DNA of 31,391 bases from contig DYOT01000001.1 in NCBI GenBank assembly GCA_020720345.1, positions 1-31,391 of the forward strand, read 5' to 3'. Source of the stretch: Candidatus Caenarcanum sp. (lineage in GTDB: Bacteria; Cyanobacteriota; Vampirovibrionia; Gastranaerophilales; UBA9971). The notes below the pieces were generated by a model that was not told where the DNA came from, made no database searches, and saw nothing but the letters and a program-made list of their open reading frames with translations. Shown here in pieces: positions 328 to 28,270 of the stretch (positions are counted from its first letter, which is position 1; the number at the start of each line of letters is the position of its first letter). The position numbers and the translations under genes are program-made.

Positions 328-2883
328 ATGATTATAGATTATGACAAATATTCTCTGATTATTAATAATAAAAAAGTTTTAATAAACAGCGCAGCTTTTC
401 ATTATTTCCGATGCCCGGGAATAGATACTTGGAGAGACAGACTAAGCAAGATTAAAGCCTGTGGATACAACACAGTCGACTTCTATTTTTGCTGGGGATA
501 TCACTCACATAAACCAGGGGCTTATGATTTTACCGGAATCAGGGATATAAGAGCGCTTCTGGATTTAACTGTCGAGCTTGACTTACACGTAATTGCGAGA
601 CCGGGACCTTTTATAAACGCTGAACTTTCTCTTGGCGGACTTCCAACTTGGCTTTTAAATATTCCCGGCATGATTATCAGGAACAAAAAAGACGGAAATT
701 TTGTTTACTCCAAGCCTTACATGAAAGCATTAAGAGAATGGTATTCAAGAATTATTCCAATTATAAATGAATATCACAATATAATTGCATTTCAGATAGA
801 GAATGAATACTTCACAAATGAGGCAGAGCCTGATTACATGCAGGAACTTTACGATATGTCTCGTTCTCTTGGTATTAAAGCGCCAATATTTCATAATGAT
901 GCGCTTTCTGTTGGTTTATATTCTGACATTGTCAACATTTACGCTTTCGATAATTATCCGACAATTAATTTAAACTATAACTGGAAGGATTTTCCTGATA
1001 CTTTCGGGGTTTTAGACAATGCGGAAAGTAATCTAAAAGAATACAAAGATGATGCGCCGCTTTTAATTGCGGAGCTTCAAGCAGGATGGTTTGACAGATG
1101 GGACGGTATTGGATATGAAAAGATACACCCCCATTTTGAAGAACAGCATATAAATATTGTTACTAAAACAGCGCTTTCGCAGGGAATAACAATGTTTAAC
1201 CATTATATGGGATGCGGAGGAACTTCATGGGATAAACTGGCAAGCTGCGAAGTTTATACGTCTTATGATTTTGCAGCGCCTATTTCAGAAACAGGCATTC
1301 CACGAAAAAATTATTTTAAAGCAAAACAAATAAACTATTTTTTAAATTCATTTAATCTTGCTTCGACCGAGCTAATCGAAGAATTTCACGCTGAAGTTGT
1401 CGCATGTCATTCCGAACTTGATTCGGAATCTATCCGGCAATTAGAATCGGTATCCAAAACCGAACAGATCTTGAAACAAGTTCAGGATGACAATTCTATG
1501 CAAGATACTATTTTGGAAAATGAAAATCTTTTCATCAAGTTGAGAAAAGATAACCTTAATGGATGCAAGTGGCTTTTTATCAGAAATTTTAATATTTTAG
1601 ATAAAAATTTAAATATTTTAGATAAATTTAATATAAAAATTAAGCCTTTCGACATGAAAATTCTTCCTGTTGATTTAAACTTAAACGCATGCAAAATAGA
1701 TTTTTCTTCAATGGAAATTTTTGCAAGGGTTGAGAATGCTAATCATGAAAAAGTTTTTTTGCTTATAGACAAAGATTCTGAGATTTATATTTCCGCCCCA
1801 CTGATAAATGGAATTAACCGTATAAAATCCGATAATCTTGAAGATTTATCTTCGTATAAATTCACAAAAGATGACCAGATTACCGAAATTATTTTTATAA
1901 AGCCTGAAACTGCTGATAAAACGTGGATTATTAATAATAAAATTCTTACAGGTGTGGATTTTTTAACCGATAATTCAGCAAAAGCTGCTTTTAAAAAAGC
2001 TTTTGAAAAAGAAGACCTGCCGCAATTAACAAATTGGAAAGCCTTTAAATGCAGCCCTGAAATAGATTTCAACTATGATTATTCAAGCTGGGATGTATTA
2101 AATGAGCCTGAAAAGTTTGACTGCATTACAAATGCAACTTATGACGATTATATATGGTATAAAGGCTCTTTTAAACATACGCCTGACATGATTGAAATAA
2201 GCGCTAAACACTGCTGGGCTGTTTATTTAAACGGCAAACAAATTTATCAGCACGATACATTGGGAATTGACCATGAAATTTCTGAAAATATAACTTTTGA
2301 AATAAACAAACATTTTTCTCATCCAACCGGTAGAAATGAATTGACGATACTGGTACAAAATTTAGGATTTGACAAAGGTTTTCAAAATGAACTTGTCGCT
2401 CCAAGAGGAATATTGTCGTTAAAAACAATACCTGAAAAGGAAATTGAATGGAGAATAAGAGGCGGATTAGCTCCTGTTATAGAAGAATGGGATTTCATGC
2501 CGGAAGATAATCTGGAAAACTCTTCCGAAAACGCTTATTTAGTACAATTAAGCGCAAACTTCAAAATAAATCCTGCTAATAAAAAGGTAGAATTTAATCC
2601 TCTTTTACTTGACCTGAGCGATGCAAAATTTAATAAAGCGGATATATATTTAAATGGCAACCATATTGGTAGGTTCTGGAAATCCAAAGGTCCTCAAACT
2701 CTGTTTTATATGCCTGAAGAATTTATAAACCCTGTTAACAGACTGTCATTAATTATTTGGGACAGAGAAAATGTTATTAATTTTAATAAAGACTTTGATT
2801 CAGGACAAGTATGTGTTAATATAAAGATAAGAAACATTCAGGCATTTGAATTAAAATCAGTTGAAGGATTAAACCTTACTTAA
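328..2883 (+). CDS. GH35 beta-galactosidase-like glycoside hydrolase (cytoplasmic, no signal peptide)
   Basis: GH35 motifs SAAFHYFR, GYNTVDFYFCWGYH, ARPGPFINAE, FQIENEY (acid/base Glu), AELQAGWFD (nucleophile Glu), YTSYDFAAPISE. C-terminal beta-domain motif IYLNGNHIGRFW...GPQTLFYMP. Confidence 0.9.
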   Translation: MIIDYDKYSLIINNKKVLINSAAFHYFRCPGIDTWRDRLSKIKACGYNTVDFYFCWGYHSHKPGAYDFTGIRDIRALLDLTVELDLHVIARPGPFINAELSLGGLPTWLLNIPGMIIRNKKDGNFVYSKPYMKALREWYSRIIPIINEYHNIIAFQIENEYFTNEAEPDYMQELYDMSRSLGIKAPIFHNDALSVGLYSDIVNIYAFDNYPTINLNYNWKDFPDTFGVLDNAESNLKEYKDDAPLLIAELQAGWFDRWDGIGYEKIHPHFEEQHINIVTKTALSQGITMFNHYMGCGGTSWDKLASCEVYTSYDFAAPISETGIPRKNYFKAKQINYFLNSFNLASTELIEEFHAEVVACHSELDSESIRQLESVSKTEQILKQVQDDNSMQDTILENENLFIKLRKDNLNGCKWLFIRNFNILDKNLNILDKFNIKIKPFDMKILPVDLNLNACKIDFSSMEIFARVENANHEKVFLLIDKDSEIYISAPLINGINRIKSDNLEDLSSYKFTKDDQITEIIFIKPETADKTWIINNKILTGVDFLTDNSAKAAFKKAFEKEDLPQLTNWKAFKCSPEIDFNYDYSSWDVLNEPEKFDCITNATYDDYIWYKGSFKHTPDMIEISAKHCWAVYLNGKQIYQHDTLGIDHEISENITFEINKHFSHPTGRNELTILVQNLGFDKGFQNELVAPRGILSLKTIPEKEIEWRIRGGLAPVIEEWDFMPEDNLENSSENAYLVQLSANFKINPANKKVEFNPLLLDLSDAKFNKADIYLNGNHIGRFWKSKGPQTLFYMPEEFINPVNRLSLIIWDRENVINFNKDFDSGQVCVNIKIRNIQAFELKSVEGLNLT
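1405..1492. repeat. Palindromic element, family A, full two-arm copy inserted in-frame in the GH35 gene
   Basis: Left arm TGTCATTCCGAACTTGATTCGGAATCT (1405-1431), right arm AGATCTTGAAACAAGTTCAGGATGACA (1466-1492). The arms are imperfect inverted repeats and each is a hairpin. Translates as CHSELDSES...ILKQVQDD. Confidence 0.9.
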
Positions 2884-5817: not shown

Positions 5818-5822
5818 TTTAT

Positions 5823-5849
5823 AGATGCTGAAACAAGTTCAGCATGACA
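5823..5849. repeat. Palindromic element, family A, single right arm in the secA leader
   Basis: AGATGCTGAAACAAGTTCAGCATGACA, with a perfect 8-bp stem ATGCTGAA/TTCAGCAT. Same 27-nt pattern as the GH35 right arm. Confidence 0.85.
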
Positions 5850-5879
5850 ATTGTTAAATTCGGGGAAAAAATTAAAATT

Positions 5880-8699
5880 ATGATAGATGTTTTATTAAAA
5901 ATATTTGGGGATCCAAATGAGAAAAAAATTAAAAAAATTCAACCTATAATTGAATACATAAACAGCATGGAATCTGAAATCAGCAAACTTTCAGATTATG
6001 AATTAAAGACAAAAACAGCTGAATTCAAACAAAGACTTGTAAACAGGCAAAGATCAGACGATTTTTCAAGAGACAAAGCTTTAGAAAAAGAAGCACTGGA
6101 AAACTTGTTACCGGAAGCCTTTGCAGTAGTAAGGGAAGCAGGAAAAAGAACCCTTAACATGCGTCATTTTGACGTGCAGCTAATCGGGGGAATTATTCTT
6201 CATCAGGGACAGATATCAGAAATGAGAACCGGTGAAGGTAAAACGCTTGTTGCAACTTTGCCTGCATACTTAAATGCACTTACAGGTAAAGGGGTGCATG
6301 TTGTTACGGTTAACGATTATTTGGCTAAACGTGACAGTGAATGGATGGGCAAAATTTACAAGTTTCTCGGACTTGAAGTAGGGCTTGTTCTTTCTGACTG
6401 GACGGAAAAAGGTTTTGAAAAGAAGAAAAAAGCATATGCAGCCGATATAACATACGGAACTAACAATGAATTCGGTTTTGATTACCTGCGTGATAATATG
6501 GCAGGAAGCCTTGAACAGTACGTTCAAAGACCTTATAACTACGCTATTATTGACGAAGTTGACAGTATTCTTATAGACGAAGCAAGAACGCCTCTTATTA
6601 TAAGCGGAAGACTTGAAAAATCGGCAGAAACATATAAGACTATGGCAAAAATTGCTCCCGCCTTAGAAAAAGACATTGATTACGAAATTGAAGAGAAAAA
6701 CAAAAACATAATTCTTACCGAGGAAGGCATAGACAAAGCTCAGGAACTTCTGGGAGTTCAAGATATTTTTGATACTTCCACTCAACTTGCGCATTATGTT
6801 CTTCAGGCGCTAAAAGCCAAGGAATTATTCCAAAAAGACACTGATTATGTCGTTAAAAATGGTGAGATAGTTATAGTTGATGAATTTACCGGCAGAATGA
6901 TGGAAGGTCGACGTTGGAGTGATGGGCTTCATCAGGCTGTAGAAGCAAAAGAAGGCGTTAAAATTCAGGATGAAAGCCAGACACTTGCAAGCATAACTTT
7001 CCAGAATCTGTTCAGACTTTACCCCAAGCTTGCAGGAATGACAGGTACAGCAATTACTGAAGAAGCAGAATTCGGGAAAATATACGGTCTTGAAGTTACA
7101 CAAATTCCGACAAACAGGAAAGATACAAGAAAAGATCTTGCTGATATTGTTTATAAGACTGAAAAACAAAAATTCAAGTCTGTAGTTGACGAAATACAAG
7201 AAGCTCATTTACAGGGAAGACCAATTCTTGTAGGGACAATAAGCATTGAAAAATCCGAATTTTTATCAGGATTGCTCAAAGCAAAAGGGCTTAAACACAA
7301 TGTACTAAACGCAAAACATCATGAAAAGGAAGCCGTTATAATTTCTCAAGCCGGCAGATACGGTGGAATTACAATAGCCACAAACATGGCAGGTAGAGGA
7401 ACAGATATTATACTCGGCGGAAATCCTGAATTTCTTGCTAAAGACTCATTGTCAGGTATTGATAAAGATAAAATTTCTACAGAAGAATACGAAAATTTAA
7501 AAAATCAGGCTCTTGAAAAAGCGTATAAAATTACACAGGAAGAGCATGAAAAAGTTGTGAATGCCGGAGGACTGTACGTAATAGGCACAGAAAGGCATGA
7601 ATCACGACGTATTGATAACCAGCTCAGAGGAAGAGCCGCAAGACAGGGAGATCCCGGTTCTACAAGATTTTTCCTTTCTCTTGAAGATAACTTAATGCGC
7701 ATTTTCGGTGGAGACAAAATCTATAACCTTATGGAAATGCTTAAAGTAGAGGAAGACATGGCAATAGAAGCCCCTATAATTAGCAGAAGCATAGAATCAG
7801 CGCAAAAAAAAGTTGAAACATATCACTTTGATATGAGAAAACACGTCCTTGAATACGATGACGTTATAAACAGACATAGAGAACTTTTCTATACCCAGAG
7901 AAGAAAGGTTCTTGAAGGAAAAAATATTCATGAAGATATTACTTATATGATTGAACAGGAACTTAACAGGATTATGTCAGCTTATATAAGTCCTGAATTA
8001 CCTCCAGTTGAATATGACGAGGAATCTCTTAATTTTCTTATAAGAGCAATACATTCAGTCATTCCGCAGCTTTCACAACTTTCTGTCGAGGATATTAGTG
8101 GGATTAAATACCCTGACTTACTTGAAAAGATTAAAAACATGGCAATTGCCGTCTATAATAAACACGAAGATGAAATCATAACGTTCTATAACAATATTAT
8201 GGCTGATTCATATAATGAAGGTGAATACGAATTGCAGATTTCAGGCGCTGAAGATAATATTATGAGAAATCTTGAAAGGGATACACTGCTTAGGATTATT
8301 GACAGTAAATGGATTGACCACCTGCATAATATAGATATTCTTAGAGACGGCATTGGTTTAAGGGCGTATGGACAGAAAGATCCTCTTCTGGAATACAAAA
8401 AAGAAGCTTTTGACCTCTTTAACGGAATGATGCATGAAATTCAAAGAGAAACGGTTGCGCATCTTTTCAGGACAAAGTTCGAGATGCAGGTAGTCCATAT
8501 GCAGGAAGAGCCTTCTGATGTAATAGAAACAGATCTTTCAAGAGCCGCTGAAAACTTTGTACCTGATTTTTTGACGAACAATACTGTAAGCACAGGCGAT
8601 AAAATCGGCAGAAATGATCTTTGTCCCTGCGGAAGCGGACAAAAATACAAAAAATGCTGTATGCAAAGCGGAAGGAAGGGCTCCACTTTTTCTGACTAA
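5880..8699 (+). CDS. secA: Preprotein translocase ATPase SecA
   Basis: [64 protein letters not shown], and a C-terminal SEC-C motif [18 protein letters not shown]. The ORF-track ATG at 5844 lies inside the repeat arm, so ATG 5880 ([16 protein letters not shown]) is the more plausible start. Confidence 0.98.
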
Positions 8700-9513: not shown

Positions 9514-10140
9514 ATGCAAATAATTTTAACAGCAGTAGATTTTATATATAACTGGGGAAGATCGAATTCAATATGGCCATTAACCTTTGCAACTTCCTGC
9601 TGTGGAATTGAAATGATTTCAGCCAGCGCAGCCAGCTTTGATATAGCCAGATTCGGATCAGAAGTTTTCAGGGCAACACCTCGTCAAGCAGATTTAATGA
9701 TTACTGCTGGAACGATTACGCATAAAATGGCACCTGCTTTAATACGACTTTATGAACAAATGCCGGAACCTAAATATGTAATTGCAATGGGAGCCTGCAC
9801 TGTAACCGGCGGCATGTACGAAAATGACTGTTATTCTGTAGTGAAAGGCGTGGACAGATTAGTCCCTGTTGACGTTTATTTGCCGGGCTGTCCTCCAAGA
9901 CCGGAAGCACTGCTTGATGCCATAATAAAACTTCAGAAAAAAATGCGTACAGAAACTATTATGGACAGGAAAAAATATCTTGAAGCCCATAAGCCAAGAG
10001 TAACACTTTCTGAAGATGCAAATTGTGAAGTATTGCTTCCAAATCCTGATTTTCAGGTAATACACTGGGGAGTGCAAAAAGAGGGCTACAATAAAAACTG
10101 TCATTGCGAGGAAGCCAGAAGGGCTGACGTGGCAATCTAA
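9514..10140 (+). CDS. ndhK: NDH subunit NdhK/NuoB (N2 FeS cluster)
   Basis: [41 protein letters not shown]. The last 13 aa are encoded by a palindromic element. Confidence 0.97.
10099..10138. repeat. Palindromic element, family B, single arm forming the 3' end of ndhK
   Basis: TGTCATTGCGAGGAAGCCAGAAGGGCTGACGTGGCAATCT, with internal hairpin AGCC-AGAAG-GGCT. Matches the copies at 28168 and 30934. Confidence 0.85.
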
Positions 10141-22013: not shown

Positions 22014-23783
22014 ATGAAATATTTATTTCAGTTAAAATCTCAAAAATATAACAAATGGTCGATTATAATACAGTGTATTCTTTTTTCTTTTGCTCTGATA
22101 ATAATAGGCAGGCTTTTTTGGCTTCAAATAGTTGAAGGACGTGAATTAAAACAAAAAGCAAGCGAAAGTAGGCAATCCGAGAGAGATTTTAGTTTTCGTG
22201 GAGAAATACTTGACAGAAACGGCATAAAGTTAGCCGGAGATAACACTCTCTATGATATTTACGCTCACCCCCAGTATTATAATAAAAAAATAAGCATTGA
22301 TTTAATAGCATCAATTCTTTCACCGTCTTTACGGTTATCAAAAAGTGCCTTAAAAGAAAAATTAAGCCGTTTTAACGATTCAACAATTTCCATAGCAAAA
22401 AATGTGAAGATGGATATCGTTGAAAAAATTATTAAACCTCAAATAAGCAAAAATCAAATAAGAGGACTTGATTTCGTAAAAAAAAGTAAACGAGTTTATC
22501 CTCAGGGAAATCTGGCGTCTCACATTCTGGGCTACATAAATTCAGAAGCAAACTTATCCGCCGGAGTAGAAAAAACAGGACAAACAAATCTTGAAACCAC
22601 ACCTGAAATGAAACCCATTGAATATGACGGCAGAGGAAATATTATATATGACCTGAGCACAAACCCGCAGATTGTAACAACTCCTTTAAAGGGTTCAAAA
22701 TTGTGCTTGACGATTGATTCAATGATTCAGCACACGGCAGAGACCGAACTAGCAAAAATGATATCCAAAACAAGAGCAGATAAAGGCGCTGCAATTATTT
22801 TAACCCCTAAAAACGGTGAAATATTAGGATTTGCAGTATATCCCAGCTATAATCCAAACAAATACAATAAATTTAATGCTTCAATAGTCAAAAATTGGGC
22901 TTTAAGTGATGTTTACCCACCCGGTTCAACTTTTAAAATTATTACAATAGCTTCTGCGCTTGAAACAGGCGCAATTACCAAAGACGAAAGAATTCTGGAC
23001 ACAGGAAAAATTAAAATACAGGGATGGAATATACAGAATTATGATTATTCAAAACATCCTTATCCGGGAATGATTAATTTAAAAAACCTTTTTGTACACA
23101 GCAGTAATATCGGAAGCCTTAAAGTCTCTCTTAAAATCCCCAGTGAAAAGCATTATAAGATGCTCAGACTTTTTGGAATAGGTCAAAAAACCGGAATTGA
23201 CCTCCCCGGAGAATCTGCAGGAATTATTCACCCTGCCAGGACATGGAATGAATCCACACACGCTTCTATAGGTTACGGATACGGTATAGCCACCACTCCA
23301 ATCCAGATCGCATCAGCGGTAGCAGCCATTGCCAATAAAGGAGTCTGGGTAACCCCGCATGTTATAAAACCCCAAACCGAAGAGGAACAAGAACAAAGAA
23401 TAAAATCCAGAGTTGTATTATCAGAAAAAACCGCTTCTGATTTAACAGAATTACTTGCGGAAAGCATCGAGGCAAGCGAGGCAAAATCGGGAAAAATTCC
23501 AAAATACAGAGTTGCCGGAAAAACAGGAACTTCAAAAAAGCCTAATACCGTAGGGAAAGGTTATTCAAGCGGAATTTACACATCTTTTGTAGGATATTTC
23601 CCTGTAAAAGACCCACAAGTTCTTATAATGGTTGTAATTGATAGCCCCAAAACAGACAATTCGTGGGGGAGCACTGTAGCAGGACCTGTATTTAATAATA
23701 TAGCAACTGAAGTCGGAAGAATCCTTAATATTAAACCTGAAAAACAAGATACTGAAAACAATTTAACTGCTAAAACGGAGTAA
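22014..23783 (+). CDS. ftsI: Class B penicillin-binding protein (FtsI/PBP3-like)
   Basis: N-terminal TM, RGEILDRNG, R.YPQG, and transpeptidase motifs PGSTFK (SxxK), SSN (SxN), GKTGT (KTG). Confidence 0.92.
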   Translation: MKYLFQLKSQKYNKWSIIIQCILFSFALIIIGRLFWLQIVEGRELKQKASESRQSERDFSFRGEILDRNGIKLAGDNTLYDIYAHPQYYNKKISIDLIASILSPSLRLSKSALKEKLSRFNDSTISIAKNVKMDIVEKIIKPQISKNQIRGLDFVKKSKRVYPQGNLASHILGYINSEANLSAGVEKTGQTNLETTPEMKPIEYDGRGNIIYDLSTNPQIVTTPLKGSKLCLTIDSMIQHTAETELAKMISKTRADKGAAIILTPKNGEILGFAVYPSYNPNKYNKFNASIVKNWALSDVYPPGSTFKIITIASALETGAITKDERILDTGKIKIQGWNIQNYDYSKHPYPGMINLKNLFVHSSNIGSLKVSLKIPSEKHYKMLRLFGIGQKTGIDLPGESAGIIHPARTWNESTHASIGYGYGIATTPIQIASAVAAIANKGVWVTPHVIKPQTEEEQEQRIKSRVVLSEKTASDLTELLAESIEASEAKSGKIPKYRVAGKTGTSKKPNTVGKGYSSGIYTSFVGYFPVKDPQVLIMVVIDSPKTDNSWGSTVAGPVFNNIATEVGRILNIKPEKQDTENNLTAKTE

Positions 23784-23789
23784 ATCGCT

Positions 23790-25418
23790 GTGTCTATAAC
23801 ATTACAACAGATTATTGAATCCTTTTCGTCTTGTGATTCCAAAATAAATTCGGAATCTATCCAGTTTACGGAATCTCACATAAAACCCAAAGATGGACAG
23901 ACCCTGAATCATCTTGGTTACTCGCCTTTAACGGCATTTCAGGGAAGCAAAGCTCCCCTTGCAGCCTCAGCTCGTAATCCGCAAGTTCAGGGTGACATTT
24001 TGATTACAGGAATTTCTTTTGATTCCAGAAAAACAGAACAGGGAAACATCTTTATTTGCATAAAAGGAGAACATTCCGACGGTCATGAATACGTGGAACA
24101 GGCTGTTAACAATGGAGCTGTCGCAATAATAACTGAAAAAGAACTGCCGATAAATTCGATTCCTGTGCTTGAAGTAAAAGATACAACCCTTGCACTCGCT
24201 CATGTTTCAGCGTTATTTTACGGTTTTCCGTCAAAAAATATAAATTTAATCGGGGTTACCGGCACAAACGGAAAAACAACTGTAACACACCTGCTAGAAA
24301 ATATATTTGAAAAAGCCGGGATTGCTTGCGGACTTATTGGAACGCTTGGCTACAGATATTCATCGTCTGAAAATTATGTTTCATGCGGACATACAACGCC
24401 ACAGGCAAATGATTTACAAAAAACATTAAAGAGTTTCCTCGATAAAGACATAAAAAACGCGGTAATGGAAGTAAGCTCACATTCTCTGGCGCAGCATAGA
24501 ACCGCTGAATGCAAGTTCAGGGGTGCAGTTTTGACAAATTTAACCCAGGATCATCTGGATTATCATATTACAATGGAAAATTACCTCCAATCCAAGAGCA
24601 AATTGTTCAGCTCTCTGGAAAACAGCTCCAACAGCTATGCTGTTATCAATAAAGACGATAATTACGCAGAGCGTTTTATGGAAATAATACCCGAAAACGT
24701 AAAAACTTTGACTTACGGAATAAAGAATAAAGCCGATATAATGGCTGAAAATATTGAATTTTCAGTATCAGGCTCAAAATTCACCTGCATAACCCCGACA
24801 GGGACGCAGGAAGTTAATCTTCAGATGACAGGCATGTTTAGTATTTATAATGCCCTTGCAGCTATAGGAGCAGGACTGGCTGAAGGAATAGACTTAAATA
24901 TATGCATAGAAGCCCTTGAATCAACCCCTTCTGTGTCAGGAAGATTTGAAGTAATTGCCAGAAAACCTCTTATAATAGTTGATTATGCTCACACTCCAGA
25001 CGGACTGGAAAATGTCCTTAATGCCGCTAGAGAAGTTACCCCTGTCGGCGGAAAATTAATATGTGTTTTCGGCTGCGGAGGAGACAGAGATGCGACAAAA
25101 CGCCCTAAAATGGGAAGAATAGCAGAAAATTTATGCGATAAAGTTATAATAACTTCAGACAACCCACGCTCCGAAGATCCGCAACAAATAATTACAGATA
25201 TTTTAACCGGTATAAAGTCTTTAAGTTCAAATAAAATAACAGTGGAAGCCGATAGAAAAGCTGCTATAGAAACTTCTATAAGGATTTCAAGTAAAACCGA
25301 CGTTATTGTTATTGCAGGCAAAGGACATGAAGATTACCAGATTTTGAATAACGAAACAATTCATTTTGATGACAGAGAAGAAGCAAGAAACGCCTTGCAG
25401 AAAATTTTGTTAATATAA
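23790..25418 (+). CDS. murE: UDP-MurNAc-dipeptide:meso-DAP ligase MurE with a ~55-aa repeat-derived N-terminal insertion
   Basis: GTG start. ITGISFDSRK, VTGTNGKTT, HTTP, MEVSSH, TNLTQDHLDYH, VDYAHTPD, GCGGDRD, DNPR (meso-DAP specificity motif), AGKGHE. Confidence 0.97.
   Translation: MSITLQQIIESFSSCDSKINSESIQFTESHIKPKDGQTLNHLGYSPLTAFQGSKAPLAASARNPQVQGDILITGISFDSRKTEQGNIFICIKGEHSDGHEYVEQAVNNGAVAIITEKELPINSIPVLEVKDTTLALAHVSALFYGFPSKNINLIGVTGTNGKTTVTHLLENIFEKAGIACGLIGTLGYRYSSSENYVSCGHTTPQANDLQKTLKSFLDKDIKNAVMEVSSHSLAQHRTAECKFRGAVLTNLTQDHLDYHITMENYLQSKSKLFSSLENSSNSYAVINKDDNYAERFMEIIPENVKTLTYGIKNKADIMAENIEFSVSGSKFTCITPTGTQEVNLQMTGMFSIYNALAAIGAGLAEGIDLNICIEALESTPSVSGRFEVIARKPLIIVDYAHTPDGLENVLNAAREVTPVGGKLICVFGCGGDRDATKRPKMGRIAENLCDKVIITSDNPRSEDPQQIITDILTGIKSLSSNKITVEADRKAAIETSIRISSKTDVIVIAGKGHEDYQILNNETIHFDDREEARNALQKILLI
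23832..23997. repeat. Palindromic element, family A, in-frame in murE, right arm interrupted by a nested element
   Basis: Left arm TGTGATTCCAAAATAAATTCGGAATCT (23832-23858). Right arm AGACCCTGAATCA[...]AGTTCAGGGTGACA (23899-23997). Translates as CDSKINSES...TLN[24 aa]QVQGD. Confidence 0.85.
23912..23983. repeat. 72-nt nested insert (different palindromic element) in the loop of the murE family-A arm
   Basis: Removing 23912-23983 restores a canonical 27-nt arm AGACCCTGAATCAAGTTCAGGGTGACA. The insert is bounded by CA on both sides and has an internal hairpin AGGGAAGC-AAA-GCTCCCCT. Encodes HLGYSPLTAFQGSKAPLAASARNP. Confidence 0.75.
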
Positions 25419-28147: not shown

Positions 28148-28270
28148 CTACTCAGGTACTTGTAAACTGTCATTGCGAGGAGCTTGCGACGAAGCAATCC
28201 AAAAATTATAAAAATTTTTTTAGATTGCCACGCTCCCATTGGTCGCTCGCAATGACAACCTGAGTAGTTA
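28145..28270. repeat. Composite palindrome between convergent GH13 and clpB: full family B element inside a 13-bp perfect inverted repeat
   Basis: Outer IR TAACTACTCAGGT (28145-28157) / ACCTGAGTAGTTA (28258-28270). Inner element TGTCATTGCGAG...GCAATCC-AAAAATT..AATTTTT-AGATTGC...CTCGCAATGACA (28168-28257). Confidence 0.9.

Follow-up and report, generated by a model that had tools for sequence, protein, structure and literature searches.

The murE gene (UDP-MurNAc-tripeptide synthetase) in a 31,391-nucleotide (nt) stretch of Candidatus Caenarcanum sp. (order Gastranaerophilales; contig DYOT01000001.1 of assembly GCA_020720345.1, forward strand; hereafter the window) carries a double insertion of selfish palindromic DNA, and the reality and lineage specificity of this insertion in an essential gene are well supported. 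The outer element is a head-to-head dimer of tagged hairpins, here called family A, and the inner element is a 72-nt imperfect hairpin, here called IH72, which sits in the hairpin loop of the dimer's right arm. Taken as a whole, the 5' end of murE is best explained by two nested selfish palindromic elements that are read through as protein, an explanation that we consider likely. Both families would be old residents of the whole order, and IH72 is a new order-wide 72-nt family that lives in genes and prefers hairpin loops. The source assembly is a metagenome-assembled genome (MAG) of 1.63 Mb in 327 contigs (35% G+C, 88% complete), referred to as G000, in which the window is contig C124; the features discussed below are collected in Table 1.

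The murE gene lies in the order rsmH-ftsL-ftsI-murE, and no second murE was found in the assembly. Its product contains the P-loop GVTGTNGKTT and the DNPR motif, belongs to a protein cluster for which Pfam Mur_ligase, Mur_ligase_M and Mur_ligase_C are recorded, and groups with proteins from MAGs named Candidatus Gastranaerophilales, Melainabacteria, and 'Cyanobacteria bacterium'. From residue ~65 onward it is 58-77% identical to the MurE of 40 relatives. A first-pass annotation, made from the sequence of the window, had noticed about 70 residues ahead of ITGISFDSRK; the count is 69-71, and relatives have ~13-27 residues in the same N-terminal stretch. Matches to this MurE in 40 genomes from its family and order start at residues 61-72 (one at 101), and the frames upstream encode short N-termini of the type MKLDELIEYL...ITGIS. 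Alignments with solved MurE structures likewise start at chain residues ~21-33 and fall onto residues 66-75 here. The first 14 codons align with DITLKQIIEF and MKLDELIEYL of orthologues, and the extra residues are numbers 15-69 (55 codons, 165 nt), between the N-terminal helix and the first strand; the interval 23832-23997 is 166 nt long, with its last A shared with the native codon I70.

The insert is absent from the MurE of the 40 relatives, from that of 80 further genomes, and from the 120 best database proteins, which are 476-514 amino acids (aa) long, fusion proteins excepted. The opposite outcome considered at first pass, repeat-free orthologues with an equally long N-terminus, did not materialize. 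The closest insert-free orthologue (P0002 on locus L158) has 496 aa, is 76% identical, and reads VDITLKQIIEFVKPKEVYNFNENLNQIITGINFDSRK. Apparent shared insertions in two database MurE loci (L047 and L061) and in the GlnRS of a relative (G011) proved on inspection to be ordinary sequences without the insert. Similarly, the pairing by MAFFT of IKPKDGQ in the insert with VKPKEVY in orthologues is a coincidence, IKPQKGK being found in other family-A copies.

Residues 15-69 had been assigned to a family-A element, an assignment that holds, as this stretch belongs to the same repeat as window 1405-1492. With the inner element taken out, the outer element is 94 nt long. Its right arm has a perfect 8-bp stem enclosing a loop of 77 nt instead of 5 nt, and its left arm is non-canonical in stem and loop (9-nt arms, 89% complementary) with a degenerate tag, TGTG. 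Across the genome there are ~60 family-A arms and ~20 dimers. The arm has the form (C/T)GTC, 8-bp stem, loop CTTGW or CTCGW, complementary stem, and (A/G)TCT(A/T)TCC with an A or G after it. A few stem variants, all perfectly compensated, account for the arms (ATGCTGAA, ACCCTGAA, ATTCCGAA, ATCCTGAA, and others). In addition to composites, 17 head-to-head dimers of 68-94 nt are present with their tags facing outward. About half of the dimers are in long open reading frames (ORFs), in two frames (CHSELDSESI...LKQVQxD or VTLNLIQGLS...), and the remainder are intergenic. The arm pattern recurs in 125 of 151 genomes of the order, with the same stem variants, up to 263 arms per genome, and more than 3000 arms in total, compared with 0-1 hits for a reversed control. 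A solo family-A arm was also observed at window 5821-5849, directly 5' of the ORF 5844..8699 and overlapping its start, such that the ORF's ATG is inside the arm's ...CATGACA tag.

The 70-nt core of IH72 is present in 14 copies in the genome, and the 13 besides that in murE are recovered at E values of 1e-16 to 1e-22 (nhmmer, covariance model). Thirteen of the 14 copies lie inside open frames of 400-1070 aa in four strand and phase combinations; therefore, what is conserved is the DNA rather than any encoded peptide. The host genes encode MurE, EngA/Der, GlnRS, a PGM/PMM-family mutase, a class-III aminotransferase, a RecJ-like DHH protein, ComEC, GH65, a GT9 heptosyltransferase (two copies), and three unnamed ORFs. 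All four sites that were tested (MurE, Der, GlnRS, and RecJ) are empty in relatives. At the Der and GlnRS sites, which are empty in five relatives, the length difference is exactly 24 codons, and the inserted unit is therefore 72 nt, consisting of a 2-nt leader (usually TG) and the 70-nt core. The RecJ site lies in a length-variable region, where the insertion is accompanied by a net loss of ~5 residues. Readings of IH72 as an attC site, intein, intron, or ribozyme are ruled out by the copies in both orientations and several frames within ORFs.

A covariance model built from the 14 genome copies detected IH72 in 125 of 151 genomes of the order (1-30 copies each where present, ~880 hits in total) and in none of ~100 genomes elsewhere in the phylum. 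The element is an imperfect hairpin with an almost invariant outer frame, several almost invariant unpaired stretches, and an apical stem that varies and remains paired, often around an AAA loop. Across 48 copies drawn from 12 or more genomes, 84.5% of cells are paired and 15 of 20 pairs have changes on both sides (106 cells); none of 500 shuffles reached the observed value, and no slid register came near it. Four of the six frames of IH72 are stop-free, and the unit sizes including the 2-nt leader are 72, 75, 78, 90, 93, or 96 nt. By hand tally, 96 of 136 order-wide cores among the matches listed have a length of 1 mod 3, giving whole codons with the leader, a bias that is only a hint given that the copies are not independent and the ends set by the covariance model may be off by one. 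Copies in ORFs outside palindromes show an 18:2 orientation bias relative to the host gene, which could reflect either strand-specific insertion or tolerance of the encoded peptide. Rfam 15 returned only chance-level miRNA and snoRNA hits over 23700-24100 at E<=10 (E 0.75-9.6, far below gathering scores), the exact IH72 and family-A sequences had no match in the literature searched, and a literature search on palindromic elements in Melainabacteria returned nothing relevant.

Several arrangements of IH72 in this and related genomes are also worth recording. The GT9 heptosyltransferase gene (L007, G000:C100) contains two IH72 subtypes in the same frame (1117-1186 and 1501-1570). Back-to-back copies with only TG between them occur within a long open frame in G006 (L155, G006:C43, 751-904; L128, G006:C82), and in G053 three variants are arrayed in tandem between genes, repeating every 93 nt (TG and a 91-nt core whose apical stem is longer; L175, G053:C4, 962-1240).

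The evidence that IH72 prefers family-A loops comes from its distribution within the genome. Seven of the 14 copies lie in a family-A arm loop at the identical position, with the junction ...CTGAA-W-C-[NN+core]-AAG-TTCAG..., and excision restores a canonical WCAAG loop in six of these seven. Family-A arm loops comprise ~285 nt, or ~0.02% of the genome, and the probability that 7 of 14 copies fall within them is ~1e-23 (~2e-9 if just three events are independent). The first-pass annotation had suggested that one family targets the hairpins of the other, and this loop preference agrees with the suggestion; the contrary outcome, a single-copy inner segment with no target preference, was not observed. 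The same annotation had described a 72-nt, 24-codon inner insert bounded by CA on each side, of which the size and loop position stand and the CA boundary is found in only four of the seven nested copies. Excision of either 23911-23982 or 23912-23983 from murE has the same result, restoring ...CTGAA-TCAAG-TTCAG... and ...GQTLNQVQGD, as had been proposed for the canonical arm and TLNQVQGD.

Comparison of the nested copies further indicates that they do not share one history. The inner elements of murE and C286 differ at 1 of 70 positions, compared with 4 of 16 stem positions in their arms, all compensatory (Fisher P=0.004), whereas those of murE and C150 differ at 30 of 70 positions, yet have identical arms. 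The composites combine arm stem, 4-nt loop remainder, and IH72 subtype independently of one another, define no single lineage, and differ in their central regions. Because arm type and IH72 subtype are incongruent, the sequences support several independent loop insertions rather than the spread of one composite. Relatives extend this pattern, as their IH72 copies are also found in loops and junctions of family-A arms and of another palindrome family, in both relative orientations (e.g., IH72 in a family-A loop of G001, TTTA^T, has the opposite relative orientation). Six copies in G009 occupy one position of the other palindrome family (AGATTGCCACGTCG, inner hairpin, insertion point, TCCTCGCAATGACA), which is also represented in the window (second palindrome family, Table 1). 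IH72 is thus strongly biased towards loops and junctions of other palindromic repeats, which it has entered repeatedly, with ordinary coding sequence also a target. Recognition of an extruded hairpin would be an attractive explanation of the loop targeting.

Table 1. Coordinates of murE, the nested elements, and related repeats in the window.
Feature	Position	Strand	Description
murE (UDP-MurNAc-tripeptide synthetase)	23790..25418	+	GTG start; 542 aa including the insert; from the ORF list; sole copy found
Shine-Dalgarno-like GGAG	23777..23780	+	9 nt 5' of the murE GTG; overlaps the ftsI stop codon region
Native N-terminal 14 codons	23790..23831	+	V/M-SITLQQIIESFSS; homologous to the N-terminal helix of orthologues
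Outer element, family-A palindromic repeat	23832..23997	+	Head-to-head dimer of CGTC/TGTC-tagged hairpins of the repetitive extragenic palindrome (REP) type; residues 15-69
Left arm of outer element	23832..23862	+	Decayed; 5/31 differences from arm 1405-1435 (84% identity)
Right arm, 5' half	23899..23910	+	AG, stem ACCCTGAA (23901-23908), loop bases TC
Inner element IH72	23911..23982	+	72 nt: 2 variable nt and 70-nt core CTTGGTT...AATCCGC; encodes HLGYSPLTAFQGSKAPLAASARNP
Right arm, 3' half	23983..23997	+	Loop AAG, stem TTCAGGGT (23986-23993), tag GACA; final A opens codon I70
In-frame TTG (Leu71)	24000..24002	+	Preceded by AGGGTGA at 23989-23995 with 4-nt spacing; sole plausible start 3' of the insert
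Reference canonical family-A dimer	1405..1492	+	88 nt; in frame in an 851-aa ORF called GH35 by the earlier reader
Second palindrome family	10099-10138, 28168-28257		TGTCATTGCGAGG, variable GC hairpin, CGACGTGGCAATCT; single arm and dimer; same as the host family in G009

The history that we propose begins with a ~90-nt CGTC/TGTC-tagged REP dimer, which would have inserted into the linker, variable in length, that joins the N-terminal helix of MurE to its first beta-strand. Later, IH72 would have inserted between the C and AAG of the right arm's 5-nt loop (TC^AAG), presumably mobilized in trans by an enzyme. The frame would have stayed open, IH72 being 24 codons long and mostly stop-free and the REP dimer having no stops in the frames that are read, and the 55 added residues would form a disordered surface loop that MurE tolerates and that may be neutral for enzyme function. 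On this model the hairpin may be recognized as single-stranded or cruciform DNA. Regarding the order of events, the left arm is decayed at 5 of 31 positions, compared with 1 of 70 positions at which the inner element differs from its nearest copy and with a perfect right stem (Fisher P=0.01). Because a decayed left arm stands beside a pristine inner element, an older REP dimer and a younger IH72 are favored.

The strongest competitor to this order is a single event, in which a ready-made composite, with IH72 already present in the right arm of the family-A dimer, was transposed to murE. The seven same-junction composites in the genome, four of which have both arms, make this a common form that could be mobile, and no single-insert murE allele was found. 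A single arrival is nevertheless unlikely in view of the unequal decay just described and of the composites, which form no clade and differ in their combinations of arm stem, loop remainder, and IH72 subtype as well as in their central regions. The two successive insertions proposed at first pass are favored by the decay test, and no intermediate allele was found.

Whether the insert is part of the protein depends on where translation starts. The upstream GGAG-N9-GTG and the first 10 residues match the insert-free L158 orthologue at about the level of conservation of the whole protein, with an ACGGAG and GTG context also present in L158, and this conserved Shine-Dalgarno and GTG context, together with the N-terminal helix, argues for a start at 23790 and for read-through of the insert. 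In a structure predicted by AlphaFold2 with 99 homologues (mean predicted local distance difference test score (pLDDT) 87.6), residues 5-15 form a helix that is packed on the domain (pLDDT 93 over the first ten residues), residues 19-61 have a pLDDT below 50 and no secondary structure, and the fold is confident from residue ~70, with values outside the insert mostly above 90. The insert is accordingly modeled as a disordered loop on an otherwise confident MurE, a picture that answers the suggestion made at first pass to model the structure. Together, gene context and model point to translation from 23790 through the insert.

An alternative is that the insert lies outside the protein, with a start at TTG 24000, the element in the 5' leader, and the open frame a by-product of stop-free elements. 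The TTG has a suitably spaced AGGGTGA, both elements are stop-free in most frames, and Di Nocera et al. noted that many N-terminal REPs may be extragenic, with translation possibly starting downstream (PMC3733652). Several observations nevertheless make a downstream start improbable: the ribosome-binding context and first 10 residues are conserved with an orthologue that has no insert, the N-terminal helix is present in all relatives and confidently modeled against the domain, and the insert preserves the reading frame exactly. Furthermore, the other 12 IH72 copies in ORFs are mid-gene, where no alternative start could rescue the protein. The downstream start that the first-pass annotation had listed among the outcomes contrary to its claim therefore finds no support in the conserved upstream GTG, GGAG, and N-terminal residues.

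It is also conceivable that the elements are structured nucleic acids with a function for the host (e.g., mRNA stability or regulatory hairpins, or protein-binding DNA sites) that were exapted in murE. The conservation across the order of unpaired IH72 sequence and of a small set of shared arm variants, the strong compensatory covariation, and the 18:2 orientation bias of in-ORF copies outside palindromes would fit such a function. Against it, covariation is equally expected of DNA hairpins that are needed for mobility, IH72 copy number ranges from 0 to 30 per genome, insertion sites are lineage-specific (with all four tested sites empty in relatives), copies are scattered over unrelated genes, in either orientation and in several frames, as well as over tandem arrays between genes, and there is no Rfam match; we consider a host function very improbable.

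The murE allele itself was recovered repeatedly. The interval 23770-24040 is identical in the window, in the NCBI MAG GCA_974321815.1, and in JGI metagenome contig 3300000234, which come from different pipelines, and the insert junctions are covered without differences by contigs of two runs, one from a biofilm (2014) and one from a cave (2025). None of the runs that contain the locus is an RNA run. One contig covers 23849-24300 with no differences. The inner element, right arm, and murE body are covered with 0 differences by a 1163-nt contig from a second sample type, and a 2474-nt contig extends over ftsI, the left arm, and half of the inner element. An assembly or binning artefact, in which repeat-induced misassembly placed the repeats in murE, might be suspected from the fragmentation of the MAG and from short-read unitigs that break within the repeat, but the three identical assemblies and the spanning contigs reduce its probability almost to nothing.

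A number of observations weigh against nested insertion with read-through or limit how it can be interpreted. Compared with L158, ~11 native linker residues (KPKEVYNFNEN...; L158 3001-3110) are missing here; they were lost along with the insertion, or this lineage never had them, and a simple clean insertion does not account for the event. Comparison of murE alleles gave the empty state in relatives and no single state, and because no empty, single-insert, or excised murE allele was found in the 90% protein cluster or in contigs from the two runs, the two-step history is not directly observed. The 90% clusters of MurE and six other host proteins contain same-length members only, and no joint bypassing the insert appears in the contigs of the two runs. 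Gene conversion between repeats might imitate independent insertions, and the near-identity of the murE and C286 inner elements dates the copying event, not necessarily the insertion into murE. An in-frame TTG with a Shine-Dalgarno-like motif is present 3' of the insert. No target-site duplication is visible at the two clean sites (Der and GlnRS), and there is no fixed flanking motif, the 3' flank of IH72 being T-rich and variable and the 5' TG being part of the inserted 72 nt. With respect to an enzyme, a search for Y1 transposases of the REP-associated tyrosine transposase (RAYT) type (PF01797) gave 0 hits in G000, an incomplete MAG (88%), with other transposase families left unscreened. PF01797 occurs in 49 of 151 genomes of the order versus 125 of 151 for the repeats, the two being uncorrelated, and is absent from the IH72-rich closest relatives G006, G009, and G011 (10-21 IH72 copies).

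The outer element can be placed among known repeats. CGTC-tagged REPs include Rickettsia RPE-4 and RPE-6 and Neisseria dRS3, are often intragenic, and lack a dedicated transposase (Di Nocera et al. 2013, PMC3733652). Family A shares with them an unpaired CGTC/TGTC tag (the published definition allows TGTC or CCTC), an 8-bp stem that opens with A·T, a loop of 5 nt, alternative complementary stem residues, an unpaired tail, head-to-head dimers, frequent intragenic in-frame copies, and, from the Y1 search, no dedicated transposase, and by these features belongs to the CGTC-tagged REP superfamily. In the published definition the stem is 8-9 bp and the loop 4-5 nt. It differs in its tail (..TCC(A), longer than the published CCA), its new host (non-photosynthetic Melainabacteria), its new stem and loop sequences, and stem variants common to the whole order. 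IH72, in contrast, lacks both the CGTC and the GTAG tag and falls outside the superfamily. Nesting of REPs at fixed positions of other palindromes has been described (e.g., A. variabilis GTAG-15, T. roseum GTAG-23, and H. neapolitanus CGTC-1; PMC3733652), and the principle of nesting, with one repeat family at a fixed position within the palindrome of another, is therefore not without precedent. The present case differs in that the guest is a non-coding 72-nt hairpin that also inserts outside palindromes, the host palindrome is a REP arm, and the composite is in a gene with the frame kept.

Other systems offer partial parallels. In-frame insertions of Rickettsia palindromic elements (RPEs) have been reviewed (PMC10969869; Ogata et al. 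2000), and as in those elements, short palindromes are found here in frame in unrelated housekeeping genes, absent from orthologues, at predicted surface or tolerant regions. The lineage is unrelated and the sequences are presumably so, the link being the CGTC-REP architecture shared per PMC3733652 only. RPEs are ~100-150 nt in length versus 72 nt for IH72, which occurs in both orientations and several frames with no single conserved peptide, and in murE one element is nested in the hairpin loop of the other, with read-through predicted from sequence. The ~90-nt doublets of inverted REPs, with hairpins kept by compensatory change, resemble the REPINs of REPIN/RAYT systems (Bertels & Rainey 2011, PMC3116915), in which the cognate Y1 gene is flanked by REPs; as noted, G000 yielded no PF01797 hit. 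A single-strand hairpin mechanism like that of the IS200/IS605 family would explain the loop targeting, and insertion in that family, as at the two clean sites of IH72, leaves no target duplication; no fixed flanking tetranucleotide or pentanucleotide was seen for IH72, and no Y1 TnpA was found. The insertion sequences IS1397 and ISKpn1 insert into the loops of REP units (also termed bacterial interspersed mosaic elements) in E. coli. IH72 is also unlike a classical miniature inverted-repeat transposable element, as it is one long imperfect hairpin with no terminal inverted repeats around the core and no duplication, a parent having been sought among Y1 transposases only.

A more specific proposal, which we put forward tentatively, is that IH72 is an undescribed, still-active, gene-dwelling hairpin that is codon-quantized, has stop-free frames, is confined to one order, and homes to the loops or junctions of other REP hairpins, presumably extruded as single strands or cruciforms, through an enzyme other than Y1/RAYT. 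If this is true, REP hairpins would act as 'safe harbors' through which a second parasite reaches essential genes and causes no additional damage. The target rule (WC^AAG) provides a sequence-defined system in which to study how REP-like elements without a tag or transposase move. The findings extend selfish palindromes in essential genes, best known from Rickettsia, to the non-photosynthetic sister lineage of Cyanobacteria, and the 55-residue disordered insert beside the UDP-MurNAc-binding domain of an essential enzyme would bear on the insertion load that core enzymes tolerate. With ~880 IH72 copies and more than 3000 family-A arms, these repeats will inflate protein lengths in Melainabacteria MAGs, produce spurious 'hypothetical' peptides, and break short-read assemblies, and masking them should improve annotation.

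Two further observations concern sequence databases. The 90% cluster of the 587-aa GlnRS (P0125-P0128) has a 56-aa representative, and other members of 55-56 aa come from short contigs; these members are probably fragments or repeat-derived ORFs. The order in which IH72 occurs includes animal-gut Melainabacteria, and exact IH72 end motifs at the right spacing were found on four IMG/VR contigs of 33-39 kb that are classed as viral (L181-L184), which could be a vehicle for the spread of the element or prophages of the order.

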